Part shown: in pieces, positions 1-50,093 of the stretch | Numbering within the stretch: position 1 is the stretch's first letter | How the letters are laid out: every line of letters begins with the position of its first letter | Source: Ascidiella aspersa | Taxonomy: Eukaryota | Assembly (NCBI GenBank): GCA_963924565.1 | Contig: OZ004613.1 | Span: forward strand, 31,310,001 to 31,374,000 | DNA length: 64,000 bases | Reading direction: 5' to 3' | The notes under the pieces: model-generated | Seen by the model: only the letters and a program-made list of their open reading frames with translations | The model's database searches: none | What the model was told of the DNA's origin: nothing | Program-made: the position numbers and the translations under genes

Positions 1-1722
1 GGTGTGAACAGTCGATGTCGTTTCGTCGTGGCTGTCGCTATAGCAACTGTCGCTCGCCTGTATGACGTCATTTGGTTGATGACGCACCATGAGTGTGACG
101 TCAAACTCCTTGTTTGCGTTGTCATGCATGAACGAGGGCAGATAGTGCTGTGGAATGGACTGCGCATGCGTGTAACTAGTGGAGCGTGACTTCTTCACTT
201 GGATTCTCCAAACAACGACAAGAACCACACCCGCCACCACTAGGAGCGCTAGAACCCCGCCCATCACGTAAACCCACAACGGGAGCGATGACGTCACTAC
301 TTGCGAGTCTGACGTGGTCGTGACGACCGACAGCGTGGTGACGTCATCGCACTGCTCGATGCCGATCTTGTCGGGATGCTGGTATGACGTCACAATGCAA
401 ATTGCGTATCTCGTTTCCGGCGCGAGTCGCCCTATGTGCGTGGCGACACCTGGTGGCAGCGGGAGGATCGTGTAATCGACCATCCACATGGAGGCGGTAG
501 AGAGGCCGCTCTTGCTTGTGACGTCACAGCTCTGACACGACATCTCGCCGAACATGACGGAGAATGTGACGTAGGGAGGCTCTGACGCGGTGCTTGCGTC
601 ATACACGATTGTGACATCATTGGTTGTGACGTCACGCGTTTCGAACTTGTAAGCGGAGTGTGTGCACTGAAGCGCTTCGACGTCGATGTTGTAGAGTGTG
701 ACGTCACTGAAGGCGGGCGGTGACGCGCATCTGACGTTGTTACCGTTAGCGACGGTTGCCATGGTGAACCAGGACTTGAGGTAGATGAGGTTGCAATCGC
801 ATCTCCATGGATTGTCGTGGATGGAGACTGAGGAGGTCCTTGGGATGTTGGAGAAGGAATTCCTCTCGACACTCCTCAACAAGTTGGATGAGAGGTCAAG
901 GGTCAGCAGGTCGGGGAAGCCCCTCAGGGAGCCGTGCGGGGAATCCCCCAGCAAGCTGCTCTGAGCGAATATGAACTGGATCCTGTTGTTTGAGAGCAGT
1001 AGGTCGGTGATGTTGGTGGGGAGGTGAGGAGGGATGTTCTCGAGGAGGTTGTGGCTCACATCGAGGGTCCGGAGCTTGCGGAGACGCAACATCCCGTGGA
1101 TCGATCCAACCTTGAGTTGGTTGAAGCTTAGATCGAGAGTAACGAGGTCGGAATCCTCAGGGAACGAATCATCAGGGATGTTGCTGATCATGTTGTGCTC
1201 CAACCTCAAACTCTTCAGGTTGCCAGGGATACGACGCGGCAGTGACGTCAGGCGATTGTTGGAAAGGTCAAGGTGCTCAAGGTCACTCGCCAGCTCGAAT
1301 GACGTCTGGGAAATCCCCTCATCTGAGAGGTTATTGTCCTCCACGTGGAGTGCTTGGAGCCGATCCAACCCACGGAGCGCGTCCTTGCCAACGTACTTGA
1401 GGTTGTTGTTGCTAAGCGATATGTACGTCAGAGTGTTGGGCAGGTTTTTGGGGAATGACGTCAGGAGGTTGTCGTGCAGCTCGAGCCGCTCAAGCGTGAC
1501 GAGCTTGGCCAATCCGCGCTCGAGAGAAGGCGAGTTGGAAATCTTGTTCCCGTACAGTACAAGCACCCTCGTGTCGCTCGGTATCCAAAGCGGCAGGGTC
1601 GTGAGGTTCTTCTCCTGGCAGTAAACCCTCCCCGGGATGCAGCGGCACTCTCGCGGGCACCCCTGTGACGTCATAATCGATGCGAGCGCGACGGCGACGA
1701 ACAGAAGCAATTGTCGCGTCAT
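1..1722 (-). CDS. FLRT: FLRT-like leucine-rich repeat/FN3 transmembrane protein, paralog A (3' end runs off the window)
   Basis: Hand translation from ATG at 1722 is open for 574 codons to base 1; it is absent from the ORF track because no stop lies in the window. It reads MTRQLLLFVAVALASIMTSQG (signal), CPRECRC...VYC (LRRNT), LxxLxLxxN repeats, DNPWRCDC...RCASP...IDVEALQC (LRRCT), FN3 (LAPETRYAIC), TM LPLWVYVMGGVLALLVVAGVVLVVVW, and tail ...NKEFDVTLMVR. It is colinear with paralogs B and C. Confidence 0.93.
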   Translation of the reverse strand, partial: MTRQLLLFVAVALASIMTSQGCPRECRCIPGRVYCQEKNLTTLPLWIPSDTRVLVLYGNKISNSPSLERGLAKLVTLERLELHDNLLTSFPKNLPNTLTYISLSNNNLKYVGKDALRGLDRLQALHVEDNNLSDEGISQTSFELASDLEHLDLSNNRLTSLPRRIPGNLKSLRLEHNMISNIPDDSFPEDSDLVTLDLSFNQLKVGSIHGMLRLRKLRTLDVSHNLLENIPPHLPTNITDLLLSNNRIQFIFAQSSLLGDSPHGSLRGFPDLLTLDLSSNLLRSVERNSFSNIPRTSSVSIHDNPWRCDCNLIYLKSWFTMATVANGNNVRCASPPAFSDVTLYNIDVEALQCTHSAYKFETRDVTTNDVTIVYDASTASEPPYVTFSVMFGEMSCQSCDVTSKSGLSTASMWMVDYTILPLPPGVATHIGRLAPETRYAICIVTSYQHPDKIGIEQCDDVTTLSVVTTTSDSQVVTSSLPLWVYVMGGVLALLVVAGVVLVVVWRIQVKKSRSTSYTHAQSIPQHYLPSFMHDNANKEFDVTLMVRHQPNDVIQASDSCYSDSHDETTSTVHT

Positions 1723-1769
1723 GGCAACAATAGGTGTTTGTTTTTATTGTTTGTTGTGATAAATAATTT

Positions 1770-1800
1770 CTATAAAGGAGAGAGTAAATAGTTAAAGAAA
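1770..1800 (-). other. 3' splice (or trans-splice) acceptor just upstream of the FLRT-A start codon
   Basis: Minus strand reads tttctttaactatttactctctcctttatAG (AG at 1771-1770), 47 nt before the ATG. Confidence 0.65.
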
Positions 1801-14500: not shown

Positions 14501-17500
14501 CTGGATCCATTTAACGAGGGCTCTGGTATTTTCGTGGCGGTTTGAACGCAGCTTTTGTGCTGATATCTGCTGCTGCTTTACCTTCTGCTGCTGCTGCTGT
14601 TTTTTATGAGATGGCGGTTGTTTTTGGGTGGCCCAATTTACGACTTAATAGTTTCGCTGGAAATTCGGATCTGAGCGGATTCGAAGTGAAGCAAATTGCT
14701 TTTGGTAAATAATCTCACGTTAAGTTGCTTTCATTAAAGAAACAAACGCTTTCCTGCATACATATTATCCAAAAACATTAAACTCCATTTTTTAGTAGTT
14801 TGACCTAATCTTAAATGTAGATTTTGTAAAATTGCTTGAAATTACTACGAAAATAGCCAAATAATAAAATTGCAACACCTCGATTATTCTATTTTTTTTT
14901 TAAATTCCCTTTATGTGCGTATTTTTTCCACACTCTAGATGCCTAAAAGCCGACTATTATATAAGTAAAAAATTGGCAAAATAGTCACAAATAATATTAC
15001 CATGATTAGTTTTTTTCATATATAGTTTCTTAATACGGGGCTGTGCATTAATTTAGATTCTTCACTTACGTGATTTAAATTATTTTTTTTAAATATGTAG
15101 TTGTGTGCTTGTTCGAACTTTACATTAGAAACCACAAACCCGGCAGTAGCCTTTTCATAATTATCTTGTTCGCTTAATTCCCAAGTCATTAGGTTTCTGA
15201 AACCTAACCCGAGTCGCCACGAAGCTCAAAAACTACTGAAGCAGCTACTTCCATCCCATAAACACTTGTGCAACTTGGTTAATGCTAGAAAGCTGTAAAT
15301 GCTTGCTTATATCATATAGTTTTTGCGCCTACATTAGGTAATAACGTAAATGTCATAAAATATGCAAACTGAATGTGTAAAAAAGGAACTTTTAATTTCT
15401 ACCACCTGATTTACGTGTTTACATTATTTTGTATTCGTATTTCAGAGACGGATGATGCCGTGATTGGCGAAATATATTTCTCTTTTATAAACTAGAACCT
15501 ATAGCGACTGATTTTGACTGAGACAAAAAAGTCTAAAGTATATTGTCATAAAATACTCTGACACTTTTTTATTTGATCAACTACCGAGATACAACCAAAT
15601 ATTAACATGAAGTTGCTTAAAATGGAGAAATGTGTTGTTAAAATATTCAGTTTGTCTCATGCAATTATTTCTGTGATATAAACATAATTTTTGTGGCAGT
15701 TCAACATTTTTAAGCTTTTGTTTGAAAGTTTTATTAGCATGTGTGTTCACCAAAACATCTTTTCAAGACAGAAAACACCCAGCAGCACTGAACATGATTT
15801 TTTTTATAGTAAATGCAGACACTAGTTCGTCAAACGCGCTCAAACACGGGTTTCAAAAAGTAACTTAACCTCCCCCTTTTACAAACACAATACTTAAGCA
15901 TGGGCAGGTTTAAAGACGAATAATTTTGTGGAGGTTAAATGATATAAAAGTGTTTTCTGTAAAATGTATCAATGGATTCCTTTACCTAAATTTCTACTGA
16001 AACAAGTAAAATAATGCACAAGCTGCAATAAGAAGTTGTATTTTTTTCAAGACTAAACCACAAACAATTTTTCGGCGAATACTTGAAAAAAATTCTATGG
16101 ATGTTAAAAAATTTCTAAACCATGGAAGAGTCATTGTAAGAATGACAACCCAACAAATCACAAAAAATGGATGGAGAGATGACAGTTTCCCAGTCCGAAC
16201 CACAAACCACATTTCTTAACTTTTTCTCACATAGAAGCTTCTCATTGTTGTTCGCTTCCAGACTCCTTTGTCCATCGCGTCGGCCCACAAGTAACCCGAC
16301 CCCCCGAACCCCATTTACGGCGCAACCGAACACCCCCCGCTCCCCAACGTTCCACCAAAAGCGCGCGCGACTCTGTTTGTTGCCAAACCGCGGCCGACAA
16401 TGGCGGCGTGTGACGTCACAATGCAAAAGCGCGACCCTAACACGGAGGGGCGGGCTGCTTCGATTTGGAGTAAACCGATTTGCTGTTAATCGCCTGTTGT
16501 GAGTAAACTATGGCCGATTATTGCGTCACAATTGCGTGGAAGCTGCTAAAAGTTGCTGGAAGTTTGTGTGAAATGATATTTACAAAAACAAACAATTATT
16601 TTATCACTTCGATCGTTATTTTAAACGACGTTGTATAGATTTTTAATCGCTTTATGTAAACGATATGTGTTCTGTCATCGTTGGTCAGTACGAATTAGGG
16701 ATTGCCAGATCACGGATAAAGATACGTGTATTTTAAAGTGATAGGTTGGCTTCTCATTGTTCTCTTTATGTGCATTACACCGTTTACGACTTTTACAAAC
16801 CAATAGTTTTGTCCTACGTTAAAACAAAAGCTTCCTTGTAGTTAAATTGTTAGTTGTTTTTCAAACCCAATGTAAAGGAATTTCCCCATTTTAAACAAAA
16901 TGCAAAAATTCTTAAAATAGTGCTATTTGCTGCCTCCCACAACATTCCCAACCTTCGCCCAGTTATAAAACTTAATTCAGACTTCTACTTGCGTACTGTG
17001 TAAACCGCTAAGACGTCAGATGGCGCAATGCATCAAATTTACGACCTAAATTAGTTGGGAGAAAGATTTAATGTTCGACGTTTCGCTGCAAATATCGCCA
17101 TTAAATGCCAAACAAAATATTCAATTTAAACTTTAATTATAATCTGTCAGTTCTTGGGTAAACAGGAGTTTGACAACTGGTTATGGGTTGGACTCTTACT
17201 TAGTTTCAATCAAACTGAGTGTTTAATGAATGATGTACGGATTATTCTGAGTAAAGTTTAACAAACTGATGTTATGTTTGCCACAAAGGCCGTGTTCCGC
17301 CCTATTAAAGCACCAATCCCTCATAACCTTAAACAGGGGCGAATCGTTACTCTTAAAACCCGAAGTCCCTGTGTAAACCTTACCCTACTACCACTTTATT
17401 CCACCGTTATCTGAATATCCAAGGTTGTGTTTCGGCAACTTAAAGAAGTGTGTTAATGATAACATTGCATTTATTGTAAAGTATATTAGCGTTAATGACG

Positions 17501-20500
17501 CAAATGTTTAGCATTTTTTCCTTTAAACTTAGGGGGGCTCAGCAACCTTTATTTATCCCGGAACACCACCCCTAAGTTTTCGCGCCACCCGCTTTACAAT
17601 CCCAAGCGCAAAGTCAAATCCGCTCAACACGTGGTTCCCACTTTGACCTTGACATTATAATTCGACCTTGAAGAATGGCGCAAAGCCACTAAAGCGTGAC
17701 CTCGTGTGAACGCCCTTAAACCTTGCACCATTCGTGATATAATGTGGCAATTAGAACAAACCAGTCTATTTCGTCATAAAGGCCAACGCGCGGTTGACGT
17801 CACATTCAACAAGCCGTGACGTCACGCCCGAATAGTAGTGCCAATTAAGTCAACCGTGACCGCAAGTCGGAATGATTATAGAGCGAGTTATCTCTTTCCG
17901 TGAAGTTTTTAACTGAGTGGAAACCTGCTCTCGTGCGACATCTAGTAATACATTTGCTGCCCAAATAAGGCGAATTAGGAACTTGCGTGTTAAAGCCTAT
18001 TTTGGAAGCTGCTTTCCAATAATATTTTACGACATTAGGATTTAAATAAACTATTCATGTTTGTTTAAGAAACCATTTTTCCATCTTACCATTTGAACTT
18101 ACCTAATTGCAATTTTCATTAAAACTAATGTTTCACAAAAAGCAATTTTATTTTACAAGCAAACTTTTTAACAGGGCTTTTAATTTGCACGACTTACAGT
18201 TCATGACAATTTCTACCGCTCTCCTTCGAAAATTAGACTATTAATAGCTTTAAACAAAATCCAATAAATGTACCCTTTTAACTTTTTCAACAACATCGAT
18301 ATAACTTTTAAACGTAAGTTCAAAAGATATGACTTTTAATTTACCTCTTTCCAGCTACCTTCTAATTTAACCACAGTTGGTTGCCATTTATTTTCCGCTA
18401 GATGATGCTGCGGAGCATGTTTCGTTCGATGCGTAATCGGATTCGTCACAATTAATTATTACGCCACAATGGCACATCTCGTTATGATGTCATAAACCAT
18501 GGTGGAATACTTATGTCGTCGTTAACCGACTATGCATATGCCGGTTAACAACTGGGTGGTAATAAATGCATTGGAATGTGAAATTGAGTTTAAGTTTTTA
18601 TTGCCTGAAGTGAGTTTACTAAAAGGTCAGAAAAGTTCGGTTTCGGGGGAAATTGGAGCAAAATAAATTCGATTTCTTCTCGATCGATTTATGTCACTGT
18701 CATGAACCTTTTCATAAAGGTTGGAGAGTTGTTCCTCGTCGTTTATTACTTTGACCTTAATAATAACGAACTTTACTTTTTGAAATATTTTATTTAAAGC
18801 ACAAAGTTATATTACAAAAAAAAATATGACACAAATAAAATACTTCTGATTGAGCTTCAAGAAAATAAATATTTATTTTAATTATACTTTTTTAAGTTTG
18901 CGCAAAAAATAGCACAAATAGAATTAGAATATACTTTGGTGCAATGGCTGGAGATTGTAGTTGGACGCTGTAAGAATGTGAAAGCCCATACAGAAGTAGG
19001 TAACATATGTTAAAAATGACTTAAGAGATATTGCAAACGTTGAAAAAGCAAACTACTTCTATATGCGCTTTTATATTCTTACTACGAATTCGAATATATT
19101 TTATTAAATTGAATTTCGTTGTGGCTCTACAACCCAGGATCCCGTCGAAAATTCGCTTCCTGTGTTCTGTTCACAATCGACTAAACCAACTCTTCCGTCC
19201 ACCAGCGATGGTTGATTTTGGCGGAACATCAGCAAACCTTCCAACAATGACTTCCACAGTCCCAGGGCTGCTTGAAATAACAGCAGGTCGGATCCCACAG
19301 AAATCAAGAAGCTCACAAAACCTGGAAGCTAGAATTCCAATTTAAACTGCTGGGAAAGTTGAACTAAAGAACCCACATCCTCAACTTTCAGCTTTTTGGG
19401 GTCAGCTTTCGAGATTTCTTTACAACTGGGGTTGATTTGTCAAAGGGCTTATGGAAGTATTGAATTTTAATCAAGTAAAGTTTAAATAAAATTGTTCATC
19501 TTAGGAAGACATGCTCATAAAATTGTTTTTTAAATCTGAGATATAACATTATAAAAAACTAAAAAATATATTTTAAAAACTCATGAATTGTTGTTTCTAA
19601 TGGCTTAAATCACGAAAAATAAAATTGCAGTAAATTATTTAACACAAGCTACATTTCATTATTGTTTTAAATGTAAAACAACCAAACCTTATGAACCACC
19701 TTTATTGTTTTTAAAGACAACAAAGGCAATAACGGTTAAAATGAGTTTATGATAAAAACACGAAAATCAATTAACACCCTTTGTTATTGATTCTAGAATG
19801 ACTCTTTTTAAATCGCGTTCACACTTTCTTCGTCGTTATGTCGGTTAAATATTCCGTAGAACACAACAATCCAATATTCCGGGTTTCCGGCGAAAAAACA
19901 CGTTTAAATATTCGACTCTGTGACGTAACAGAGGGGTCGCGGAGTGAGCTTCGGTAAACAATGGCTTAGACAATGGAGCGCGATGAAACGCGCGCGACAA
20001 GCAGACGTGACTGGCAGCAACTTGCAATTCGAGAATATCGCGATTAATTGTTACGTCACGTTCCACAAATATTGAAGCAGGTTTTAAAGGAAACCGACCA
20101 ATGAGAATCAGACGCTGCTGGTTCTAGAACGAGATAAGGAACGAATCAATTATTGCGTCATAATCATGTTGCAAGTCACGTGATGTGTGCTCATGTCTTG
20201 TTAAATCGCGAGAAGTTGTTTGTTACATCACAAATCATGTTTACAATCCATTAGCCCACCCAGTCAACGAACCTTAGGCTAATGTTTAAGCAGACTTTCT
20301 TATCGTGGATTCTGATTCGCTCGCTTTTCAAATTAACAGAAAATAAATCACCGTATAAGTTCTGTCTAACTTTTTGTGATACAGGTGCCTTGATTATTTT
20401 ATCTTTTGGTCACATTCTGATATAAACTGCTGCTTTTTAGGAATATATCCGCGCAAATTACCAAATAAATGACGTTTTCTAACAATAATTTGCATAAAAT

Positions 20501-27669: not shown

Positions 27670-27703
27670 TTTATCTTATCTTATATTTTTGATTTATCTA
27701 CAG
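27670..27703 (+). other. 3' splice (or trans-splice) acceptor upstream of the FLRT-B start codon
   Basis: ttatcttatatttttgatttatctacAG, with AG at 27702-27703, 6 nt before the ATG at 27710. Confidence 0.7.
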
Positions 27704-27709
27704 ACGACA

Positions 27710-29563
27710 ATGCATAGCTTACCACAAATACTACTGCTCTTGCTTGTGACGTCATACGTCCATTGTTGTCCACAAAGGTGTCGTTGTGACGTCAGAAGAA
27801 AGGTTGTTTATTGCCACGAGCGCGATTTGCAGTTCGTTCCGCATGGAATACCACGTGACACAATCGAACTTCGTCTCCAAGGCAACAAGATCGTCGACAG
27901 TCCTCTGACATTGCAGAACCTACGTCATCTCACGCAGTTACGTAGACTCGATCTCCATAGAAACAAGCTGACGTCATTCCCCAAGCACCTTCCTTCGAGT
28001 TTGGAACAAATCGACCTGAACTCGAACCAGATCAAGTTCATCTCCCACGAATCACTACAAACAATGAGAAACCTTCGAGAACTCATTGTCGACAATAATT
28101 ACGTCACAAACGAGGGATTGTCTTTTCGCGCGTTCCAGAACCTCACTTCGTTGGTCACTTTATCGATGAATGGGAACCTTATGACGTCACTACCGGCCAA
28201 CCTACCCTCCAGCCTACGTCACATTTTCATGAAGAAGAATCGAATTGACGTCATAGGTAGTGGCGTCACGCGTAGTTTAGGCGGTTTGGTGACTCTTGAC
28301 CTTTCCGAGAACCTCCTGGGATCAAAGGTCAACAGCGGCGACTTTTTCTGGCTGAGCGAGCTGAAGTCACTCAACCTTATCGGCAACATGTTACGTCACG
28401 TGCCTAGCAACCTGCCTAGCAACCTACGTCAGCTGGAATTGGCGCGAAACGAGATAAAGTACGTCGCAATCGGCGAACTTAATCCGGGTCTGCACGTTCT
28501 CGATCTCTCGTCGAACAAACTTGAGAGCATTGAGGAAGGGGTGTTCGACGCCCTGCCCCTGCTGGTCCGGATATCGTTGCATGACAACCCCTGGAGATGC
28601 GATTGTTACCTCACTTACCTCAAACAATGGCTAACAATCACCCTCCCCCTCGTCACAAGCGAAAGCAACGTCAGATGCGCCACCCCCCAAGTCTTCCGTG
28701 ACGTCACAATTCGGAGCATCGACATCGAAGCACTGCGGTGTGACGTCATAGAAAGTTCTTCGATTGTGGTTGAAAACGTCACAAGCAGCTCTGTCCACGT
28801 CACATTCGAAGGATCGCGAGTTTCCGACCCGAGTTACTTGGATTACTTCATCTTCTACGGAATTCTCGAATGCCGCAATTGTTCCACCCTTGATACGTCA
28901 CAATCGGCATTGGCGCTTATTGCAGCAAGGAGTGACGTCATGATCGCGTCATCACTCGAGATCGAGGAGCTGGCGGCCGACACCGATTACGTCATATGTG
29001 CGCGTACGTCATACCAGCGCATTGTTGACGTCACACTAAAGTCTTGCATCATAGTGCGCACGGAGCCGGTTGTGCTGATGTCGGTTTCTGGGGGGGCAAG
29101 GTCACCCCTCCCAACCTGGGCCATTGTCGGCATCAGCGCCCTGTTGTTCGGGGTTGCCATAGTAACCACGCTTCTCGCGTTGTGGAGGTTTTACACAAAC
29201 AAGCACAAGTTACGTCACAGACGGTATTGTTCCCACTTCTCGCGCGCGTCCATTGTTAGCAGATCGATGGAGAATATTCACCAAGTTCACATCAAACAAT
29301 ACAAGGGCAGTGACGTCAAACGTTCCATTAGCACAACGACGCTCGACGCAAGAAACGAGTTTGACGTCACAATCCTCGTGCGCGGTCAAGAATTCGTGAC
29401 GTCACCACCTTCGCTCGACAGCGCGGTGACGTCAACGAACAATACAGACGTTTTCACGAACTCGCTGCACAGGCAGCATTATGACGTAACAACGGACAAC
29501 GAGCGCTTGTCTTGGTATAGTTCCAACTTAACCGACCTCGATGACACCGGAGTCTACGTTTAA
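27710..29563 (+). CDS. FLRT: FLRT-like leucine-rich repeat/FN3 transmembrane protein, paralog B (617 aa, single coding exon)
   Basis: ORF 27623-29563 trimmed to the Met that begins a signal peptide (MHSLPQILLLLLVTSYVHC). It has CPQRCRC..VYC LRRNT, about 10 LRRs with FLRT-like P-x-x-L-P spacing, DNPWRCDC LRRCT, FN3 (LAADTDYVIC), TM (WAIVGISALLFGVAIVTTLLALW) and a tail ending DDTGVYV. Confidence 0.95.
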   Translation: MHSLPQILLLLLVTSYVHCCPQRCRCDVRRKVVYCHERDLQFVPHGIPRDTIELRLQGNKIVDSPLTLQNLRHLTQLRRLDLHRNKLTSFPKHLPSSLEQIDLNSNQIKFISHESLQTMRNLRELIVDNNYVTNEGLSFRAFQNLTSLVTLSMNGNLMTSLPANLPSSLRHIFMKKNRIDVIGSGVTRSLGGLVTLDLSENLLGSKVNSGDFFWLSELKSLNLIGNMLRHVPSNLPSNLRQLELARNEIKYVAIGELNPGLHVLDLSSNKLESIEEGVFDALPLLVRISLHDNPWRCDCYLTYLKQWLTITLPLVTSESNVRCATPQVFRDVTIRSIDIEALRCDVIESSSIVVENVTSSSVHVTFEGSRVSDPSYLDYFIFYGILECRNCSTLDTSQSALALIAARSDVMIASSLEIEELAADTDYVICARTSYQRIVDVTLKSCIIVRTEPVVLMSVSGGARSPLPTWAIVGISALLFGVAIVTTLLALWRFYTNKHKLRHRRYCSHFSRASIVSRSMENIHQVHIKQYKGSDVKRSISTTTLDARNEFDVTILVRGQEFVTSPPSLDSAVTSTNNTDVFTNSLHRQHYDVTTDNERLSWYSSNLTDLDDTGVYV

Positions 29564-34480: not shown

Positions 34481-37400
34481 TCACGTGCCACAACACTGAT
34501 TGCTTTCTTGCGTCATGGATGGTCCAATAGAGGCTTGCGCCTCTTCTTTCTGATGTAACAATTGCTGCATGTGAACAACTTTTATGCAAAGATCCAGGAA
34601 AACGTCATTTACACCTGAAATGTGAAGTTTCAAGCAAAGTCCATTTGTCAGTTTCTTATCGTGTTCGGAACACTTTATAACAAAAGTAGTCTTTTGGAAA
34701 AATTTGTTTAATATTAACCACATTTTTGTTTTATTGACGTCACAATGCTCTTTACGTCAACAATGCCCTTGCATCGGGCGCCGGAAGCTCGAAGTGGTAT
34801 CAGTGAAATGCGTGGCTACCAGCTTTAGGCATTTGTGTTGAAATGAATAAGTAATAAACCTACGCTTTAGCCTGGTGTTTACGCTACAGAGTAAAGAGGT
34901 ATATTTTCCGCTTTTACTTGTGCTGTGGTTTTTATAAATACGGAACATGTTGAGAAATTTATGTTGGACACAATTTGTTTTTATTTATGTTGGACACAAT
35001 TTGTGTTTATACTTTTCTGTCTTTCCTGGAATTTAGAAATAACCAACAAATATGTCTTTTTTGAAAGATAGCAAATTTTAAATCGCTTTAAATTCAACTT
35101 TGAAACTCTATTTTATTTAGTTTTAAATTATTTTTGACTAGCTATATATATTGCACATTTAACATATGTATATATAGATATATAGATATAATTTTATGTG
35201 GCCATTAAAAGTTAAATTTGACTAGTTTTCCGACCACGCTCATTTCTGACGCTATAGATGTGCAAAAATAATTATTTCTGCAAAACCCTGATTTATTACG
35301 TCACTAGTAATGACGTAGTTTTCACCGTGGCTTGAGAGAGCTGATACTTCCCTGAAGTGAGCTCCGACCGAATCAGCGAAGTCGTTCGCTTCTTGCTTCT
35401 CAACTTGCCTCTCAACCACTGGAACGTCCGTCTTGTTCCCAACCACGAACAATACTACAACAAACAACATTATGACGTAACAAGCCTTGTGGAACCGACC
35501 CATTGTTGCTCAACTTACTGATGTTTTCTTCGACGTTATTTTGCAATTCTGAAAAGTAACAAAACAATGTTTGGATTTCATTTTTAACCAAATATTTTTA
35601 ACTTGTGCGAATCAAAGCCTAAATAAAAATGTTACAATTTTTCAAACAAATTAAATTTAAAAATATTTTAGTTTGAATGTATCATCAAATTGGTAAAATA
35701 AAATCGATTTATAAAATTATTGACATTATTAAAATTAGTTAAACTTTTATTAAAAATTCGTAAAACCATTTATCGGGTTACAAAGTTTACCTAAAATACT
35801 ACGTAACAATGCTCTCACCCGAAGCCCATTCTTTCAACGCGACGAAACTGTCCTTGCTTGTGACGTCATAAACGAGTAGCGCGGCCGCCGAGTTGCGATA
35901 ATACATGGGCATCTGTGGGACGCGCGAGCATTCATTATTAATCGACGCTCAATAATTGATTGTATTCCCTTTATGACGAGACAATTGAATCGCGAAATCG
36001 CGATAAAAGTCAAAAAAAAACTCGCGTGCCAAACATTTTTCTATGTTGGTATTGCACATGCAACTAGGGCTCCGGAGTCGTGACAAGAACTGGAAGTGTG
36101 TGCAACCGTTTAGTTGTAATAGTAATGTTAATGATGTGATAGTGATGTAATGGTTGAACTTTCTTAAGGTGTTATAACGTGCGCGTTAAATCATCAAAAA
36201 CGTAAAATATATTTTTTACGAAGAAAATCAATATTACCCCCAGGGTATGAGAAAAACCGAGCATTAAGCAAAGGTGTAAAAAAAATGCAGCTTAAATGTC
36301 AAACTATTGCGAAGAATATTTTAAATACCTAACAATTACCAGGAAACGAGTTCCTTTAATCTATTTCACATTTTATAGCATCAACAGAATCGCGGAAACG
36401 AGTTGAAACTTCACACAAGAAAAAAAGGCGCGAATCGACGAGGAAAGTGCTCGTCACGCTCGACTGGCGTTTGCGTGTCACGTGGTTCGGGTTGCACGTG
36501 GAACCAAATCGCGTCGAGTTTTCCCACAAACAATCGGCGCCGCGACCCTTCCGCGCGCGGCTCTTGTTACGTCACACAGCAGGTCGGCCGTGTCGGGTTG
36601 CGCGGCGCGAGAGCCGGTGCATTATTACGTCACACAATACATGGCGGGCAGTTTCACCCAGGGGCTAGGTTCGCTTTGTTGTGGGGTTTTTGGGGTATCG
36701 AAGTGATCCCTTAAATTTCACCCACTTGCTATTTTTACCCAACTTTTAAAACGTTGATAGGCCGCAAATTCACAGCCTTTTTTTCACAGTCGGTATCTTT
36801 TGTTTTTCCACAACTCTTTTTCGCGATTCTGACAATTTGATTATTGACGTATTATTGGCCTCACCCCTTATTGACAATTAATAAAGGTATATAGAACCAA
36901 ATTATTTGTTTAAAAAAAAACAATTCTGGCACAATATGTTTTTTAAACTTAACATTACGCCTCATGCATATATTTATTTTATATTTAGAAATGTACCAGC
37001 AACGTATCAGGTATTAATAAGGATTATACATTATTACGTCACAAGAATACGAGTTGTTATTATATCACAAACCCACCAGCGATCTGAACCTTTCTTGACC
37101 AGCGGTATCCCAGATCTGTAAAGTGACGTCATGGTCGCCGATCTCTCTGGATAAAGAACATTTTATGACGTAGCAATCATCCTGACTTAAAAATATACTA
37201 AATTTCAAAAGTAAACAAAACATTGAAATGTGATTTAACAGGTGGTTTTATATTGTACATTTAGGCCAGTGAACTGTTTCAGCTTGAGGCAAACAAATTA
37301 ACACAAAGCAAGTCATCATTTAAAAAACATAACATTAGCAGTTGTGCAACGAATTGTGTACATTAAAGTCTCACATGCTTGCATTTTTATTTTTAAAACG

Positions 37401-40400
37401 ATAAATTTGTTTTGTAAAATCCCCAAAAAATTAACAAAAAATCGCGGCGAACTACAGAATCTTTTACAGCACACAGTTGTGGAACGACTGATTTAGGTGA
37501 TTCCCCGTATTGTCAAACTTTGTGGTTTTAGCAAGAAACAGATTTTAATAATTAACAGTTTGTTTGAATGTTGTTGTGAAGCGTGTTCCAAGTTCGGTCT
37601 GACCTTGCTGCAATGAGAGGCTCGCATGAAATATTGATAACTGCAAGCAAACCTATGCTTTATTGCCGCACACCTAACAATGGCAAAATATTAAGAAAAT
37701 GGACGAAATTTGAAGATTTATTAATATCTTGAATATTTATCAGGCGAAAACTGTTGAAAAATAAATTGTATCGGTTGAAATTTAACTTTTGTACAACTGT
37801 GCTTCATTAGATCAAAGTACAAAAAAAAACATGGCAAAGTTTTTTATAAAATAAAAATATATACTTCATAAGATTACAATTATTTGTTATTATTAAAAAA
37901 TTCTTCAAGATTTTAGACATTATTAAAATACACATATTTTAGACATATCTGCCTTAAGGTTCGATATTTTAAAAATGAACATCACATGGGTGGCAAAACT
38001 ATTCAGTTTGTAATTAGTCCTAGTTTGGTTATTTGTGGTAGTTCACTACAATGCTAAATCACAGTGTTTAAACCAGGTTTATACAGGGTTATAAAAAGCA
38101 ATACTGTATCTTTAAAAGCAATACTGTATCTTTAAAAGCAACAATAACCTCTGTATTAATTTAGATGTTATTTTTCAGCTAAATGAGCAACAAAAACATT
38201 TCAAAAGCCGTAGTTTAAACACCAGATAATATAAAACAGTGGTTGCCAATATTTTAAGTACGAACCAAATTTATTTATTTTTTAAATAAATTGTCTGGTA
38301 AACTGATGTGTGATTTACTGAATAAGTTCCATTTAATATTTGTAGACCTCTATTGATTTCGCAAATTATCGCGCGTATTGCATGTGTAAATAATTAACAT
38401 ATCCGGTACAACAACATTAATCCTTAAAACTACATTTAGGTATTGAACCTTATGAACAATGCTGGGTATTTCATCCAGCGATGCGATATTTAAGTCGATG
38501 TTGGGACGAACTTAACTGGAAAGAAAAGCTCGTTTTTTTGGCAGATTTAAATCTTAGGCGAGCTATTGCTAGGAAACCACTGCCATGAAACTTTAAAGTT
38601 CACAAAAAAATCGAATTTCACGTCGCGGTTTTTGCTAAAAACCAAATGAAATTCTATCTATGACGTAACAGAACACCAAACACGTGACCACCCAGCTGCG
38701 ATTCGGTTTCGCGTTCGAGAATCCATTGTTGATGGGACAAGTGCAGTTGTTACGTCACAGTATGGTGCTTGCAGCTCACGCGTTTATGCCGATTCAACAT
38801 GTGAGCAAATATTCGGGGGCGTTTGAAGTATTTGCGGAATACTTGGATCGGAGAAAGATCGCGCTTTCCCATTGTGACGTCATATTTCAACATAATATAT
38901 CATCGTTCCAAACCCTTTGTAAAGTTCGACAGTTCACTCATAAAATTGGAAAAAGAAAAACACCAATCTTATAAACGAAAGTATACGGACATATTTGCTA
39001 ATAAAGATTCAAATGTACTATGCATTTCATAAAAAGCATTAGAAAACATTCTTACACATATATGGTGTGTTAACCGACAACATGGACTATTGTTAATAGA
39101 GCATTTATACTTAAACAATTGCAAAGTTACTTTTACTAAAATGCTTAGTTTTGTTTAATAAACACGCATTTTTCAGAAAATGTCATTTTTCGTCTTATTC
39201 TGACTTGGTCATTCATATTCAAGCAAAACCAAATAATCTGTGCGTTAGTGCGCTATTGCGAACTTGTGTTATCAAGCTTTATTATCTCAAACAACAGGTG
39301 CACAAGCGAGACTAACGACTGTTTTTACAAGGACCTTGTTTATGGGAACTCGCAGGTTGCAGCCTAAAGTTAGAGTCAAGGTTAATGTCCTTATAGGCTC
39401 CATGGCTGACAATTCTCGGCATAAATGGCGTCGTCTATAAACAAGGCTAATTCTAATAAAAAAACATATAAAATATTTACCGTTTAAAATCAAAATGTGA
39501 ATCGCTCAATATCGCAATCGTTTTTAGTTTGAAGCTTTAAAAAAGGAAATTTTTTTTTCAGAGCGAAAAACAATCTATCCCGCCATTTGTACATAACTTT
39601 TACCAAAGATAATAAGCGATTGTTTGGTAACAATATCCGCAATAATCTTTATCGATTTATGCTTATACGGTTCCAACAAACGCGCATTCCCGAGTGTTAC
39701 GTCATAGCGCGAGTCATTGTTGACGGCGACGTGTTGGGTTTGGGGGGATTAAGTGGGATTAAGGTGGGTTCCCAATCAGTCTGGGGCTCAATTAACCCAC
39801 ACAACGGTAGGGGATTCCCCGGTGAATAATTATGTCAATAAAGAGAGAAGGTTTTTGACCGGTTCTAGAGAAGCCATTGTTTTATAACAATACAGAACTC
39901 TTTCGCAAGTTAAACTGCCCCAATGCTGTTATAATATGATTTTAATTATCTTTTCTTTGTGGACTTTGATATTCTTAGTACGTCTAACTAAAACCGCCAA
40001 CCATTATGTTCCTTTTTTTACTTTGTATATGTCTTTGACTATGAAAACTTGTTGATATCCTTATAACAAAAGTAGGGTTTTACATCAATTTTTTGTGCTT
40101 GAATATCAAACAAGTTCAACCAACTAGCTTTATATTACAGAATGTTGCGAAAATAATATTTTTTTTATAAGAAAGTTCAAACATTTTCTATTCGTGAATT
40201 ATTTATGTTGCGTTCATAGGGTTGTTAAGTTTAATGAGTAATATTATGTGGTGACATTGAACTTTAGATTAAAACTTATTGATGTCAAATTGTTCCAAAA
40301 TGAATCCAAATATAAAAAACTTCCGAAAAAAATGTGTCCAAAAATTTTTTTCCGGTTACATAATTTTTATGGCATTAAAACAAAAAATTGTCTTAAGCGA

Positions 40401-42897
40401 ATAAAACATCGCTTCTGGATTTCACCAGATCACATCCTATTTACATTTGGAAGTTTTGCGAAAGTAAACTTTAGTTGAATCACTCCGGACAGAAGGATTA
40501 GGCTTGTTCTAACTAACATTGTCTCGCTGTCACTGCGTCACAATCGCGCACTATTTCGTCACAGAGCGACGCCGGAGCTAGACCGAGCATGACATCTTTG
40601 TTTTCACAGCTCGAGATGCCAGGTTGCAAGCGAGTAAAGTTTAACGGAAGAATTCAGTAAAACCAGCTAATGCTGCCCCTGGAGGCTTGAGAAAGAGATT
40701 CTTGAGGTTTGAGAGAATAGAGGTTTTATTTTCCTTATCACTGAGGATTATTTGAGGCTAGGAAGCTATTTTGCAGGACAAACAGATTTTAACGGGTAAA
40801 ACTCGCATTTTAATAAACTTTTTCAGAATAATAAAACACTATATTCGATAAAATCGTCATTTCTCTGTTTACAAGCGTTTTGGCAATACCTCATGACGTC
40901 ATCAGTTTCAAAATATTTAAGCGATAATAAAAGCAAAAAAACGTTAAAAAAGCTAAAAGTTTCAGAATAGTTTAGGTAGCAATGTAATCTATCATTTGTT
41001 GAAAGTATTCTACCGTCAATTGTGGTTTGTGTCTAGTTAGCCTAGATGTGTAATTTCGACAAGTATGCCTTTTGTGTCCAAATGGTGTTACTTATAAATA
41101 CATGACGCAAATAACGCATGAAATTTCATCGGGTTTCAAGAAAAGTGAAACATCATCTACGTTCGGTTTTCAGATTTGGTGTAAATCACCAATCTATCGC
41201 AATAACGTTAAAAAGTATTTCAAAGCATTTCTGCCATATTAAAGCACACATTGCGTCAAAAAACTAAATCCAAAAGGTTTCCAGAAATTAAAAAAATGTG
41301 AATTATTACCTGTTTATCAAATTAACCATGAAACACGATAACTAATAATGGCATGATGCTAAAAAATGTGCATTCAGGTCTAGAGTATTTAGGTACAATC
41401 TATATCAGCCTTATTGCTTTAATATCAAGTGGATTGTATTTGTTTAACTTATCGGAAGTCTATGTCGTCACAGTTGAGATTGTGATCTAATAAGTGTCTT
41501 TATTGCGGCAATAATAGGAAAGCGCGGGATCCGATTTCAACAAATTTAGATCCGAGATAATGCTTACTTAATCCCCGCACTACCACAATGCCGCTTTGAT
41601 ACGTCACAAAGCTTGCTTGCCTATTAAATTTTATTTTTTGAATATTATTTTTTTAATTAAAGCATGACATGGCCATCTTGCAATCTAAAGTTTATAGCAA
41701 ACTCCTAAAGCTTGCTACTTGTCATGCTTAGTATTTTTAAAGACTGTCTCTGTATTTAAGTTCAACGTGGACTCCTCCAGAAAACCTTTTATCCAACACG
41801 TAAAAACATTTTCCAAATGGCTTATTGATTATTTGTGGCTTCTATCAATAGTTAAAAGCCAAGTTGGCTGAGAGATATTAAACTTCATTTAACCTGCAAT
41901 AATGAAGTTCACATGGGTCATAACAAACTCTAAAAGGGGTTTCATTTGATTCGGTAAAGAGAATATACTTGCAGTTCTTATTAAATAGGTTCATTACTGT
42001 TCAGTTAAAATGAAAACCCACGGAAGCAGATGTTTATCAACTTGTAGCGACCCCGTGACAACTTGTATCAAGCGCCGGCAGCTTTTAACACGGACTGAAT
42101 CAATAAAGTCTCTCGCTGGAAACTTGTCGTCGCTTCGAGTTGGCAGCGAGCTTATGGAAGTTCATTATTACATCATAAGCGTTCCAAGCTAAACTAGACG
42201 CTCCCCTGAGCAAAATGTCCCCCTGGGGCCAGTTTTGCCCCCCCAAGGATCGAAATTACCCCCCGGAGATTTGAATTGAAACTCACTGTGTGATTTGAAA
42301 ATGCGAAACGCCGATGGTTGAAGTCACGTGATGATCGAACATCTTTGTGACGTAACGATTGACTAGTGACGTTTTTCCGACACCTGCAAAGCAAACAGGT
42401 CAAATGTGAACTTGATTATTACAAAAATAACGACAAAACTGACTTGCATTAACGGTATAAGTAACTGAGCGTAATTATAAATCTAGAAAATAGTTACATT
42501 TGGAAACTTTGACAAATAAATGCAAGCTATTTTTGAAATAAACAACTTTCGCCGATTTGCACAAAACGAAGAATTTTAATTTGTTAAAACCCGGTGCTTT
42601 TCCGCCCTACCAGTCTCAGTTACATTGTTACGTCACAAAACCTACTGTTACCTGATATTGTAGCGCTTCTTGCGCGATCTGGGAACTTTTTGCCCCGGTT
42701 TTGTGCAACTAATCACGATTGTGCGATAATTATATTGTTTCTTAATTATAGTGGAGAATTACAAACCGACAACTCGTCGAAATCCCGCTGTCCGGCTTAA
42801 ATTTAATCCCTATTATGACATCACAATTCGCGTCGCGCGCTTTCCTACCTTGGTTGCCGATCACCAAAACTTTGGCAGTCGCTCTTTTTTGCGCCAT
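34481..42897 (-). CDS. Rab-family small GTPase of the Rab5/Rab22/Rab31 group (RabX1-like), 200 aa, 7 coding exons
   Basis: complement join(42849-42897, 42287-42383, 37077-37146, 35819-35912, 35519-35548, 35326-35454, 34481-34614). All introns are GT-AG, phases match and the total is 603 nt. Protein: MAQKRATAKVLVIGNQGVGKTSLVNRYVTKMFDHHVTSTIGVSHFQITQEIGDHDVTLQIWDTAGQERFRSLMPMYYRNSAAALLVYDVTSKDSFVALKEWASELQNNVEENIILFVVGNKTDVPVVERQVEKQEANDFADSVGAHFREVSALSSHGVNDVFLDLCIKVVHMQQLLHQKEEAQASIGPSMTQESNQCCGT. G1-G5 boxes and a C-terminal CCxx prenylation motif are present. Confidence 0.93.
34957..35004. repeat. Short direct repeat in Rab intron 6
   Basis: atttatgttggacacaatttgt occurs twice. Confidence 0.8.
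38094..38141. repeat. 20-bp tandem repeat in Rab intron 2
   Basis: (aaaagcaatactgtatcttt)x2 plus aaaagcaa. Confidence 0.85.
39736..39768 (+). other. Putative G-quadruplex motif containing two GGATTA sites
   Basis: GGG-ttt-GGGGGG-attaagt-GGG-attaaggt-GGG. Confidence 0.45.
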
Positions 42898-43985: not shown

Positions 43986-45703
43986 TTGAAACCCTTTTAT
44001 GGGGGTAAGTAGACTCCTACCTGTACGCATAATGCACTAAACTACATAGCTGCACCTAACCTGTGTTAAAATTGATATTAGTGTTCTCAAGGGTATATTT
44101 ATAACTAAGTATTTTGTAAGTTGATATTTATATTACTTTACTTATGCCAGGAATGTCACTGTTACATTTTGTGTCCATTAGATAATTTACCTTGACCAAT
44201 CTAGTTTAGTGCAAAAATTATAAAGAGTTGTTCGGTTTCAATACATTGAAGTGGAATATACTTTCCGTAGTAGGTTTACTCGAGGTGTTTTTACGAACTG
44301 TGATATATTTGTTTAAAAATCCAACTACGTTTTCATTCACACTTGTTTAACGCGTTGCAGAAGTTTTAATTAGATCGTCACGTTAAAATATTATCAGCAA
44401 TAAAACCAGCACCTTGGAAATAAAACAAAAGTTCATATATTTGTTACGAGATATTTTTTTTTCAACGATAACTAACTTTTACCTTCAACCTGTTTATGTA
44501 TATTGTGTTTTAATTAAATTGTTACGTTTTATCCCAACTAGCAATAAAACCAGCACCTCGGGCATCAAGCGCGACCGTAGTTGGATTTCCTCGTGTTCTT
44601 ACAAACACGGCGAGAATATTTGATCAGTCAACAGAAAGTTAAGGTTCGTAGCGACAGTTGTAAGTACCAAGGAAGAAAGTGTTTGAGAAGGTAACGGTTC
44701 GTAAATACGAGAAAGCGACGAAGTAATCGCGGTTTGGCCTTTACCACCAACAACTGAAGTTACCTGCGACATAAAAAAACAAAAGTTGAGCAGATTGAAA
44801 TGATGTAAGAGGCTTTGAGTGATTGGCAGATGCGTGATTAGCTAAAGTAACTGCGCGAGAAGCATTCGCTGCGTGGAGCTGAGAGGGAAAAAAGATCGCG
44901 TCGGTGAAATATCTGCCTCAACTTCGCTCAATTTGTCTGCCGCATAAGCTGATGTGTGTGTGGGTTGGTGGGCTGGTGGTGCTTAGTTTTATTGCTTCTC
45001 GCGTCTTGATTGTTTGCGCGATCGTAAATCCACTTTTAAGAACTTGTGTTTTGCGCGGTTTGTTGTTTGTGCTGATTGTTCGGTTTGTTTACGTCACAAA
45101 TTGACGCGCGATCGAAAATCGATTGGATTTGACAGTTGAGGCAAAATGGCGATTCCAGGTATAATTGTTATTTAGGCAGTTTATTGTTCAGAATCACATA
45201 TTTATTAATTTGAGTATTTTCTTAAAACAAGCGAGTTAGAGTGTTTAAGTAAAATATCGTAGTTTAATGTAATAACAGGTACTCAAGGTTTGGTCAGAAA
45301 TGCTCTTTTTTGGTTCCGCTTAGTTGTATTTTTTATCAACTCGGTTTTTATATTCAGAAGTTGTAATGTTTATTGAATAAGTTAAATTTTCAAAAGTGAA
45401 ATTTCGAAACTCTTAAAACATAGTTTTTTACTTATTTTAGCTAAACATGTGTGGCTAGAAACTTGTACCTAATAATGATGTCGTATTGTTAGCAACATAT
45501 GAACTTTATCAAAGTTTTATGGATTATGAGCGTTTAAAGAAAGTACCAGTTAGTTTCGAGCGCTTTCGTTTGATTTCACTTCGATACAATTCCCGAATCT
45601 TTAAGCGGTGTCAAATTTCACCTCAGGGAAACAAATCGATTCCGCGGGACTTTAGTGCTCCAAACCCCGCCGAGCAACTTGGCGATTTGTGGCGCCTTTA
45701 TGC

Positions 45704-46009
45704 CAGTGTTTCTCACCCATGGGTCGCAACCAATAACTGGGTGGCCGTTTGATTTGTTTGGTCGCCGACTACATTAATTAATTAATTAAAATAGTTCAAT
45801 TTATTAAGATTGGTTCTGAGCAACATATCTCTAAAATTTACGAGGATTGCGAAAGCATTATGAAGACATGCCCCATATTTGCTGCTATCTTAGGACTTAT
45901 TTGTTCACTTTAAGCTTGAAACAAGTTCGATAGGATAATTAGGTCGCCAAAGCTGTTAAACTTACACTTAGTATTTAGGCCGCCACAAAAAAAGGTTGTC
46001 AAAACACTT
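45704..46009. mobile_element. Degenerate hAT-like MITE, family 1 copy, abutting the FLRT-C acceptor
   Basis: Starts cagtgtttctcaccc and ends ggttgtcaaaacactt (imperfect TIR). Internal similarity to 33459-33765. Confidence 0.6.
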
Positions 46010-46023
46010 ATTTATTTCAACAG
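46010..46023 (+). other. 3' splice (or trans-splice) acceptor upstream of the FLRT-C start codon
   Basis: atttatttcaacAG, with AG at 46022-46023, 18 nt before the ATG at 46042. Confidence 0.7.
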
Positions 46024-46041
46024 ATCAACAAAAAAACAAAA

Positions 46042-49000
46042 ATGAAGCTAACAAAAGTAGGGACTCTATCTGTGCTGACGCTGCTCGTGACGTCATTAGC
46101 AGTGACGCAATCGCTGCAGGACTGTCCGCGCAAATGCAGATGCGACGAGCGACACCGTACGGTCTACTGCCAGGAGCAGCAACTACCAGTTGTCCCCTAC
46201 GGTGTACCCCCCAACACCAGGGTGCTGCACATGCAGGATAATGACGTCATAAACGGACCTATTGTCGACGAGAACCTGTCACAATTGACGCGATTGGAGA
46301 AGTTGAACATGTACGGCAACCAGCTGACAGCTGTACCAGCAGGTCTCCCAGCATCTCTCGAGTTTGTGTCGCTCAGGAACAACAGGATCAGGTTCATCGG
46401 GAAGAATTCACTCCAGGGATTAACTTCGCTCGCTGAGATCTACTTGGACTCAAATAACATCACAAACCTTGGTCTTTCAAGCCTTGCGTTCAGCGACACT
46501 CACAACCTGCAAGTACTCGTGCTCACTGACAACCTACTCACCTCGCTACCCGAAGGACTTCCGAGTAGTTTGCGAGTTCTCAGACTAGACTCGAACCTCA
46601 TCCAAAGCATCTCCAAGTCGTCCCTCCTCCATCTCAACAAACTCTCACTCCTCGATCTTTCATACAACAAGATCAACCAGGACTTCATCGCTAGAGGCGC
46701 TATGCTGCCCCTCACATCTCTGACGTCACTAGCGCTTGACGTCAACCAGCTCACCGAAATACCCCCCCAACTTCCCCCCTCGCTCAACGAACTCACGATG
46801 TCACGAAACAACATCCGCTACATCTACAGCAGTGATGACGTAGACGATAATGACGTCATGGTTGGAAGTTTGAGCTCGTTGCATCAACTGATGACGTTGG
46901 ATCTGTCGATGAACTCGTTACGTAGCGTCCAAACTGCGTCATTCGCCAACCTACGTCACCTAGCAACGGCCAGCTTCCATGGCAACGCGTGGGTGTGCGA
47001 TTGTCATCTCGATTATTTCAAACAATGGCTCATTGTCACCAGCTCTGTGCTTAGCAGCGAACATGACGTCACATGCCAAGCTCCACCGAGGTTTAGTGAC
47101 GTCACACTTAACAGCATCGACGTCGAAGCGCTAAAGTGCGGTCAACAAAGCCTACAATTGACCAGTGTGACGTCACAAAGCGTGGTTGTTACGTGGAAGC
47201 ACGAAGAATCGAACCCCCCTTACATAGAGAAGCGTCTCTTGTATGGACCCCTCACCTGCCAGAACTGCTCCCTCGACCCTCGTGACGTCATCAGTGACGT
47301 CACCGACCTCGTGGACCAGTACAGTCTACTGGATGTGACGTCACAAGTGCTTAACAATCCCGAAAACGCTGAGATCGAGATCGACCGATTAGTCGCCGGG
47401 ACGCGATACTTGGTCTGTTATTACGTCACAGAGCAAAAGATCGCGGACATCGACATGAACCAGTGTGTGTATGCCTCGACCAATCAGCTTCCTCCGTCCA
47501 GTCCCCCCGCTCACGTGACGCAACAGACCACGTGGCCCCCGCTCTGGATTATCCTCGTTTGTTGCATCACAGTACTCGTCGTCTTCATTTGCATAATCGC
47601 AGTCGTCATATTACGTCAGCGGCGATCACTCAAGCATGGCCACAAGAGGAGCCCAGGAGCGCGTGGGAACCGTGACGACTTTTACTTCCCGGAAGCTTAT
47701 ATTCCGGGTTACACGTACGCCCCAGCGCCCCCCAGTGGCAGCTTCGGCACCAACTTGAGCGAGCGGACTTACATGGAATGCGGGGAGGCCGACGCGTCAC
47801 TAGAGTTTGACGTCATGATCAAGCCTAGCGACGTGACGACACCTAAACACGTGATGACGTCACGGTACGAGGACGTCACGATCGAAAGGTGGGTTGATTT
47901 TGCGAAGAACATAATGTTTCCGGTAAATTTTAAGTTGGTTAAACTGCGGCCATTTTAAAATAAAGATATTCGATTTTATTTTCAAAATTTCTCTTTAAAA
48001 ACATTTTTGATCTTTGCTCACTAAAAAGAAATGGAGTGAAACGCAAAAAACGAGGTTTAGAGAACTTTGTATAGAACTCAATTACATAATTAATCAATAT
48101 TCATGCAAAAGTAACTCACAAATCAAATCTAGACAATAACCATTGCCAAATTTGGTTCCACCCTTTGAACAATATTCCTTATTTTGCGTCACACCCAAAC
48201 ATCGATAGTAAAGGTTAAACTCCCTGTCTAGCACATTTAGGTAAAATTCCTAAAAGTTGGGTCAAAGTACTTGAAAATCAAATTCCGGTCAAAATTACGC
48301 GAAAGTGCTTGAACTAAATATGATCGAATTATGCAAACCCTTACTTAATTGCGATGAACCGCAGTAAAATCGCAGCAAAACAACCCACCCAGCCTACATT
48401 ATATGCTTCTATGGTCAAATCTCCAAGTGTAAGTTCAAGTGCTCGCCCACTCTCAGTATCTGCTGTAATTTCCTCCTTTCCACAAACCAGTGCTCGCCAT
48501 AATTGACGCCTTCACCTAATTGTGATTTTAGGCGCCGAAGCCAAACCCGTACACTACAGTGTACAGACTTGCTAGTTGCTGTACATACGCAGTTTTAAGG
48601 TTTTTCCTGTAATTGGCCCAGAGTAATGTTTTGCAATGGCGCCTGTTAAATTTTATGGCCAATTTTTTTATTTAAATGTTTCTACGATGCTGTAAAAACT
48701 TTTTACAGTTTTAAATTAGAAAGTAAAATTGTCGTTTCAATTTTGTTTTATATTTATTTTCCCTAAAAAGCTGTCAGTAAACTTACTTTGTCAATATATT
48801 TATTTTGAACAACTCCAAATTAAGGAAATTTGGCAAACGTTTAATAACCACACTATTTCTATGTCCGATTGAATTGTTTTACATCTATTTATCTTACAAT
48901 AATAGAACCCCAATATAATTCATTGCGAATGTTCTAAATCAATGTTTCAAAGTGTGTGAAAAGTAAATCACCTTATAGGAATAAAATTAAAACGTTAAAG

Positions 49001-50093
49001 GAAAAAGAATTTTACAAACGAGAGACTAAAGTGCCAACGACCAATTAGGTTCTTGGTTTATTTTTTTGCTGAAGGCAGTAGGCTTTTTAACTGTTGAACA
49101 CCAGCATTTTACAAGTCGAAAAAAGTTGACAGAATGTCGCATACAACCTTTGTTTGATTCGATTTTCTATATATCCAACAATAATAAAACCCTAACCCAA
49201 TTTCACCAAAGTTATATATTTTTGCGTATAGTCATAATACAGAGCAATGCCGTGCTGGGTTGTCAGTAGACTTACCTCCAGCGAAGCCATAAAAGCTTTA
49301 AAAGCGACGTAATTTGAAACCAAAGCGCACATTTTTCGCGGCCAGTCAGGAAAGCTATTAAACCTAATAAATCTTCGCTGCATTTCTTTCTGCTTTTCCA
49401 TCACAACCGGGCTTTGTTGATTATGAAGGTTACCTCGCTGTAACACGAGTTTTAATAAGGCTTAATCAAATACTCACTTCTATTTGAGCAAGGTTCAATT
49501 ACATAATGACACTACATAGAGTGCATAACCTGCTCAAAACAGCAAATAAAAACTTCGAGTCATAAATCAAGAATTACAATTTTCGCAAAACATCAAAACG
49601 CCTGTTTAAAATTTCTTTTCAATTCTATTTGACATAAAATTCAAAATTCGTGAAAAACAGACAAAAGTGTCAAATCCAGTCAACTGTAAATAACAACAAT
49701 AGGTTTATGATTATTGTTTCTAATAGACACCTTGATATAAACCAACGTTTACATAAATTGTTCTAAATAAAATATATATATTTTTTTGATTTAGTAAGAA
49801 TATCAAAGCCCATGCAGAAGTATGTATCATTTTAAACGTTTCAAATAACTTTTTATTCGTTTTCAACATGTTTTGATTTAAATATTAGAATTCGTTTTCC
49901 CGCCTAAATCCCGAGCCGCCATTTTCTAAACCTTTCCATTTTAAATTCCAGCAATCCCCGATTAAGCTCCAACCCAACTCCGTCAACCAATCACAACGCC
50001 ACAATCGCATCACGTGACGACCCCTATCTAGATGACGACACGTCAGCGACAATGACGTCACGACTACGTCATGAAACCGGGATTTTTGTCTGA
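46042..50093 (+). CDS. FLRT: FLRT-like leucine-rich repeat/FN3 transmembrane protein, paralog C (662 aa, 2 coding exons)
   Basis: join(46042-47888, 49952-50093). Exon 1 carries signal, CPRKCRC LRRNT, LRRs, GNAWVCDC LRRCT, FN3 and TM. Donor AG/GTGGGT at 47889 and acceptor ttccattttaaattccAG at 49951 are phase-2 compatible. Splicing gives ...IESNPRLSSNPTPSTNHNATIASRDDPYLDDDTSATMTSRLRHETGIFV*, which matches the paralog B end DDTGVYV*. Confidence 0.92.

Follow-up and report, generated by a model that had tools for sequence, protein, structure and literature searches.

A tandem trio of FLRT-type receptor genes in an ascidian is an old cluster that probably encodes latrophilin ligands

The 64,000-nucleotide stretch of Ascidiella aspersa DNA analysed here (the window; C7:31310001-31374000, some 0.35 Mb short of the end of the 31.7 Mb contig C7) contains three diverged FLRT-type genes, A, B and C, which form an old ascidian cluster that probably arose from a single FLRT gene of the tunicate–vertebrate ancestor, independently of vertebrate FLRT1-3, and whose products would act as adhesion ligands of latrophilin. 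Vertebrate FLRT, latrophilin and Unc5 proteins guide neuron migration and synapse formation, and a tunicate trio that appears to have kept the latrophilin contact, with the Unc5 anchor absent, offers a direct way to order the FLRT interactions in evolution.

A six-frame scan of the window reveals three long open reading frames, A on the minus strand and B and C on the plus strand, all intact, as expected from a first-pass annotation that had placed three LRR-FN3-TM genes within about 50 kb. The FLRT-A coding exon (1..1722, minus, ATG at 1722) runs past base 1 of the window by 126 bases, which would explain why one gene had been described as invisible to the ORF track; it encodes 615 aa ending SSGMMV, with the signal peptide, LRRNT, LRRs, LRRCT, FN3, TM and tail in one coding exon. 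FLRT-B (27710..29563, plus) is also a single coding exon, of 617 aa ending DTGVYV. In FLRT-C, the first coding exon (46042..47888, plus) carries the entire ectodomain, the TM and most of the tail, and a phase-2, GT-AG intron (47889-49951) separates it from a second (49952..50093, plus), placed by its GT/AG signals and frame, which supplies the tail end and the stop after ETGIFV for a total of 662 aa; its last base, 50093, coincides with the end coordinate given at first pass. This second exon has a homologous counterpart in a second ascidian (L048), ending DTGIFV. Splice acceptors are predicted at 1770..1790 (minus) for A, 27683..27703 (plus) for B and 46003..46023 (plus) for C, with the AG 47, 6 and 18 nt before the respective ATG. 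The proposal that ectodomain and TM share one exon stands for A, B and C, the tail of C extending into a second exon; the acceptors 6-47 nt upstream are predictions. Vertebrate FLRT ectodomains are likewise encoded in one exon. Database models, including P0006 and P0087, read through a stop or into the C intron, masking the conserved tail end.

One stranded RNA run carrying the same species label showed no FLRT junctions at B and C, with a sense-strand depth of at most 1.2 on C and 0.4 on B. Read piles at 15444-15535 and 49792-49869 were rejected as exons; the reads mostly continue into unlike sequence and point to repeats. A short dispersed repeat at 49792-49869 (in the C intron), 19007-19084 and 39967-40012 draws many RNA reads from elsewhere.

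A search of the genome with B gave 33 matches, three of them at E<1e-84 and all three in the window, the next best being 8e-16, and no fourth FLRT copy was found within 174 kb around the cluster. The only strong FLRT matches of the genome all lie in the window. The tandem origin first suggested for the trio holds, and so does the FLRT-type identity. In a PDB sequence search, each of the three proteins has FLRT2 or FLRT3 ectodomains as its seven best matches (E 1e-43 to 1e-49), the next family following at 1e-26 to 1e-34. The LRR domain in a predicted model of A (pLDDT 86) matches the FLRT2/3 fold with a TM score of 0.87-0.92 of the target, and the second domain, modelled alone (pLDDT 90), matches an FN3 fold (TM about 0.5, E 4e-4); the Pfam fn3 profile falls below cut-off in B and C and is absent in A. 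The model has helices at 2-19 and 482-512 and places FN3 directly after LRRCT, and a signal peptide, a single TM and a short tail are also evident in the sequences of all three. Pfam detected no Ig domain in A, B or C, unlike LRRN, LRFN and LINGO with their LRR-Ig-FN3 arrangement. An ESM Atlas search with B returned FLRT3, FLRT1 and FLRT2 as its first three clusters, other LRR families scoring nearly as high. Vertebrate FLRT1 and FLRT3 are nested in MACROD introns; none of the 40 Macro-domain matches in this genome (a lower bound from an exon-wise search) lies on C7, so there is no sign of such nesting for the trio.

In vertebrate FLRTs the concave LRR face, with R186 and D188, serves for binding both to the OLF domain of latrophilin and to other FLRTs, D141 pairs with R292 of latrophilin, and Unc5 attaches at a lateral site whose anchor is H170 (PMC4210639, PMC4396693 and PMC4838878). 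At the D141/R186/D188 positions A has E/R/E, B has D/F/K and C has D/R/D. Among 36 tunicate-type rows of the alignment (11 named or from the window, 25 assigned to tunicates by the tree alone), D141 is retained in 32, R186 in 22 and D188 in 12; all eight A-type rows keep R186, which is lost in the window's B and in Phallusia B. The aromatic concave patch has largely diverged, Y94 being replaced by D in 22 of the 36, H115 by S or D and F165 by V, T or S; Y48 is retained in most tunicate-type rows. H170 (H165 in FLRT3) is found in none of the 36 tunicate-type rows and in all ten FLRT2 rows; it marks a functional site, and belonging to the family by descent does not depend on it.

C2 carries two genes of latrophilin type, each with lectin, OLF and GPS domains, at 26.83-26.85 Mb (L012-L013) and 32.73-32.76 Mb (L015-L017). 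One of them keeps R292 and R294, with A in the R324 position; in the other, N occupies the R292 position. An OLF-bearing latrophilin is reported for Ciona, consistent with the two genes here (PMC6422961). The trio likely binds latrophilin. GPS-motif matches number 146 in the genome, many in tandem and with long open frames, which suggests a large expansion of adhesion-GPCR or PKD-like genes. A genome search for UNC5 gave three ZU5 matches, ZO-1-like and ankyrin-like by inspection, and no UPA domain; this search says nothing either way, since one for GAIN likewise came up empty in a genome that does contain GPS genes. With the histidine absent, the trio likely lacks the Unc5-binding site of vertebrate FLRTs. 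The adhesion or guidance code envisaged for the cluster at first pass is plausible for latrophilin and doubtful for Unc5.

In the mechanism that we propose, the concave LRR face would, as in vertebrates, make contacts between cells, both with the OLF domain of latrophilin and with other FLRT molecules. The concave arginine is retained in A and C and lost from B of this lineage, so that partner or affinity would vary among the paralogs. An Unc5 repulsion arm is probably absent or works by a different chemistry, and signalling by the tail would depend on motifs confined to tunicates, among them its C-terminal G-x-aromatic/hydrophobic-V end. It is unlikely that the paralogs instead left latrophilin behind for homophilic adhesion or for other partners, such as an unknown ligand or, by way of FN3, the FGF receptor. 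Such a departure would fit the diverged concave aromatics, the absence of R186 and D188 from B and the loss of R292 from the second latrophilin, and vertebrate FLRTs do bind themselves and FGFR as well (binding partners in PMC4838878). It fits poorly with the retention of D141 and Y48 in most rows and with the existence of an OLF latrophilin that has R292 and R294. Also against it is a role of FLRT and latrophilin in Ciona neural tube closure, reportedly described by Smith et al. in 2021 in work that may also treat the paralogs.

Outside the binding face, the tunicate-type proteins have features of their own. A CxxC motif in FN3 is present in 31 of the 36 tunicate-type rows and the tail motif [DN][AG]xxE[FY] in 33, compared with none of ten FLRT2 rows in either case. 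The CxxC loop is inserted in FN3 (residues 396-399 of A) and accompanied by a very short LRR-FN3 linker. Tail ends similar to those of A, B and C are found in Ciona A and B, in Clavelina B and C (the latter ending ETGSYV) and in all three genes of the second ascidian, while Ciona C and Phallusia A deviate; the G-x-aromatic/hydrophobic-V end presumably resembles a class II PDZ ligand. Homology of the tunicate EFDV to a block in the FLRT2 tail was rejected, since 383-506 of 2000 shuffles scored equally high.

All trees contain FLRT2 as their only vertebrate FLRT. Neither FLRT1 nor FLRT3 was among the 94 region-search matches, in which the vertebrate proteins were FLRT2 except for one unrelated fish protein; two word-index searches, with B and with the alignment as query, returned no vertebrate FLRT, and a 50%-cluster search covered the best 150 of 129,351 matches, with amphioxus beyond its reach. 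A quick 50-row tree placed the tunicate-type rows on one side against FLRT2 and outgroups with support 96, and a careful 17-row tree recovered tunicate monophyly against FLRT2 weakly, at 50/95; one quick tree pulled LRRC32 into the tunicate clade. An origin independent of vertebrate FLRT1-3, as the first-pass annotation had it, is favoured by the best tree, but AU tests do not reject FLRT2 placed with A, B or C (p 0.23, 0.31 and 0.08).

These tests leave room for a quite improbable history in which the triplication predates the tunicate–vertebrate split and vertebrates kept one copy, which 2R then multiplied, and lost two. The depth of the A/B/C split, at 34-38% pairwise protein identity, would agree with it; the best trees keep the tunicates together, A, B and C share the FN3 CxxC and two motifs of the tail that set them apart from FLRT2, and Oikopleura yielded one FLRT match only. 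A separate origin within tunicates remains our favoured reading; it draws further support from the near-equal scores of each paralog against FLRT2 and FLRT3, from the CxxC and tail motif that FLRT2 does not have, and from the 2R paralogon that carries FLRT1-3 (PMC3560075).

One-to-one orthology of A, B and C with FLRT1, FLRT2 and FLRT3, which the first pass had named as the opposing outcome, is contradicted by the best tree, in which FLRT2 alone represents the vertebrates and the alternatives are not rejected, and we regard it as very improbable. It has in its favour the match of three genes to three and the database names FLRT1-like, FLRT2-like and FLRT3-like. Each paralog, however, scores nearly the same against FLRT2 and FLRT3 (152.0/150.2, 170.5/169.8 and 162.9/162.4 bits), which argues against such a correspondence, and one and the same Ciona gene is labelled FLRT3-like and then FLRT2-like in databases. 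The vertebrate copies, moreover, lie on a 2R paralogon, in an analysis of FLRT1-3 rooted on two C. savignyi genes (PMC3560075).

The best named database matches of A, B and C are from Phallusia, at 56-62%. Named orthologs were found in Phallusia (A and B), Ciona intestinalis (A, B and C), C. savignyi (fragments of A and C) and Clavelina (B and C). A careful tree of 21 rows, drawn from single-stretch database matches with near-duplicates and most FLRT2 rows left out, resolves the three paralogs as clades (A 94/98, B 97/99, C 95/99), with one fast-evolving pair unplaced. A clade of the window's A, B and C only is rejected at p 1e-7, and with Phallusia added at p 5e-53. The order B-Rab-C also recurs: in the second ascidian, known from metagenome contigs, the minus strand carries Rab exons 7.5 kb past B and 5.3 kb short of C, the same position and strand as in the window. 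Indirect signs of linkage elsewhere are the consecutive accessions of Clavelina C and B and seven ENA contig sizes that are each common to two or three paralogs. These comparisons establish the trio as an old cluster common to ascidians, so that 'lineage-specific', as the expansion was described at first pass, applies to ascidians or tunicates and not to the species or family, for which the tree tests and the Ciona, Phallusia and Clavelina orthologs reject such an expansion. That the copies duplicated recently within the species, or are an artefact of assembly, is suggested by proximity alone; it is refuted by the 34-38% identity, with DNA similarity between copies in short stretches only, by both tree tests and by the gene order in another species, and retains a negligible probability.

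The three genes share the four peptide signatures by which the first-pass annotation had linked them, but the DVT part of one stems from TGACGTCA palindromes that are dense in these exons. Where F[SR]DVT has its D, 32 of the 43 other family members in the alignment have G. The coding sequences of A, B and C contain 13, 13 and 14 of these palindromes (CRE), about 7 per kb, spanning 63-1666, 27747-29427 and 46088-47855 in the FLRT coding exons. Counts are 18 for the remaining 58 kb of the window, 47 for 20 samples of 10 kb taken along C7 and 4 for 17 other long ORFs. The density in the FLRT exons is 20-30 times the surrounding rate. Half-sites number 49, 61 and 59 compared with 13, 17 and 19 in synonymous shuffles, none of 1000 reaching the observed value. 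Five of 33 distinct sites are common to paralogs, including both DVT signatures. Close TGACGTCA pairs occur 1533 times genome-wide, compared with once for a reversed control; regions L008 and L009 are rich in the palindrome (13 and 12 per 10 kb), and of the first 50 pairs listed 16 lie in the first 0.38 Mb of C1, a hint of enrichment at chromosome ends. The trait is weaker in the second ascidian, at 3 per CDS. The density of TGACGTCA is a genome-wide trait that shapes codons and peptides (DVT, xTS), and it inflates the apparent strength of some peptide matches between the paralogs. Literature searches turned up no account of this palindrome density.

Between B and C lies a spliced Rab22/31-like GTPase gene (34481..42897, minus) of 7 coding exons (42897-42849, 42383-42287, 37146-37077, 35912-35819, 35548-35519, 35454-35326 and 34614-34481) and 200 aa, three of whose six junctions were seen in one stranded RNA run (8, 7 and 4 reads). 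The best PDB matches of exon 4 are Rab31 and Rab22A, and we take the gene to be of this type from that one 31-residue exon and from its motifs. The reported interleaving of FLRT genes with a Rab stands as this position between two genes, and the Rab is likely a passenger kept between B and C. A second Rab (Ras family, Pfam), which we take from its motifs to be Rab8/10-like, lies 1.8 kb beyond the stop of A on the same strand as A (L001:6500-8120, minus), so the FLRT genes are flanked by two Rabs. Convergent with it is an ORF with an Adaptin N-terminal domain (L001:128-856, plus), an AP-complex subunit. Two tandem NACHT/NLR-like genes (L007:2345-3589 and L010:1342-3165, plus) lie 22-33 kb beyond the window end, the first broken by a stop ahead of the next open stretch, and a signal-peptide ORF with no Pfam match (L008:1746-2120, minus) resembles, we presume, the start of a natriuretic peptide receptor.

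The FLRT family, the annotated Ciona, Phallusia and Clavelina proteins and a linked pair tabulated in 2012 (PMC3560075, tabulated data) were already known. Searches of open full texts on FLRT in Ciona, in ascidians or tunicates or in connection with the neural tube, and on bugeye (including portions of PMC11203038 and PMC10605842; subscription papers lie outside this scope), turned up no description of the trio, its tails or the missing histidine; the absence of H170, the retention of D141, the two OLF-bearing latrophilins and the tunicate-only tail motifs were not found in print. Tentatively, the cluster could provide a code of three FLRT ligands and two latrophilin receptors, with paralog-specific concave faces, PDZ-type tail anchors and no Unc5 arm. 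If so, it would represent the pre-vertebrate state of FLRT signalling, and Unc5 repulsion would have been added in vertebrates, a step that could be traced to a single histidine. Each FLRT gene can be knocked out in ascidian embryos. Experiments on Ciona 'FLRT' concern one of three paralogs, and the database names FLRT1-like, FLRT2-like and FLRT3-like should not be equated with orthology.

The Ciona intestinalis orthologs are XP_002119226 (A), XP_002127547 / LOC100183310 (B) and XP_002120213 (C), with 49%, 44% and 42% identity; each is recorded on a contig of 5,437,517, an indirect sign of linkage, and Ciona B keeps R186, unlike the window's B. In C. savignyi, Ocampo Daza et al. (2012; PMC3560075, supplement 8) list an FLRT pair on reftig_183, 44 kb apart, as outgroup. 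In the window the starts of A and C are 44.3 kb apart, and the two fragments identified from C. savignyi belong to the A and C types; two genes are tabulated there compared with three here, and the cluster is not discussed in those sections of the paper. The effector loop of the window's Rab diverges from those of Rab22 and Rab31. Like vertebrate FLRT2 and FLRT3 (5ftt, 4v2c, 5cmn, 6jbu), the three proteins have LRRNT, about ten LRRs, LRRCT, one FN3, a TM and a short tail, with an LRR fold that matches at a TM score of about 0.9 and with D141 and mostly R186 retained. Unlike them, they have an LRR-FN3 linker of a few residues rather than about 60, their genes lie within 50 kb rather than on paralogous chromosomes, and C has a second coding exon. 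Compared with FLRT2 in particular, the window's FLRTs carry a CxxC insert in FN3 and are without H170, and the tail motifs of A, B and C match those of FLRT2 no better than chance.
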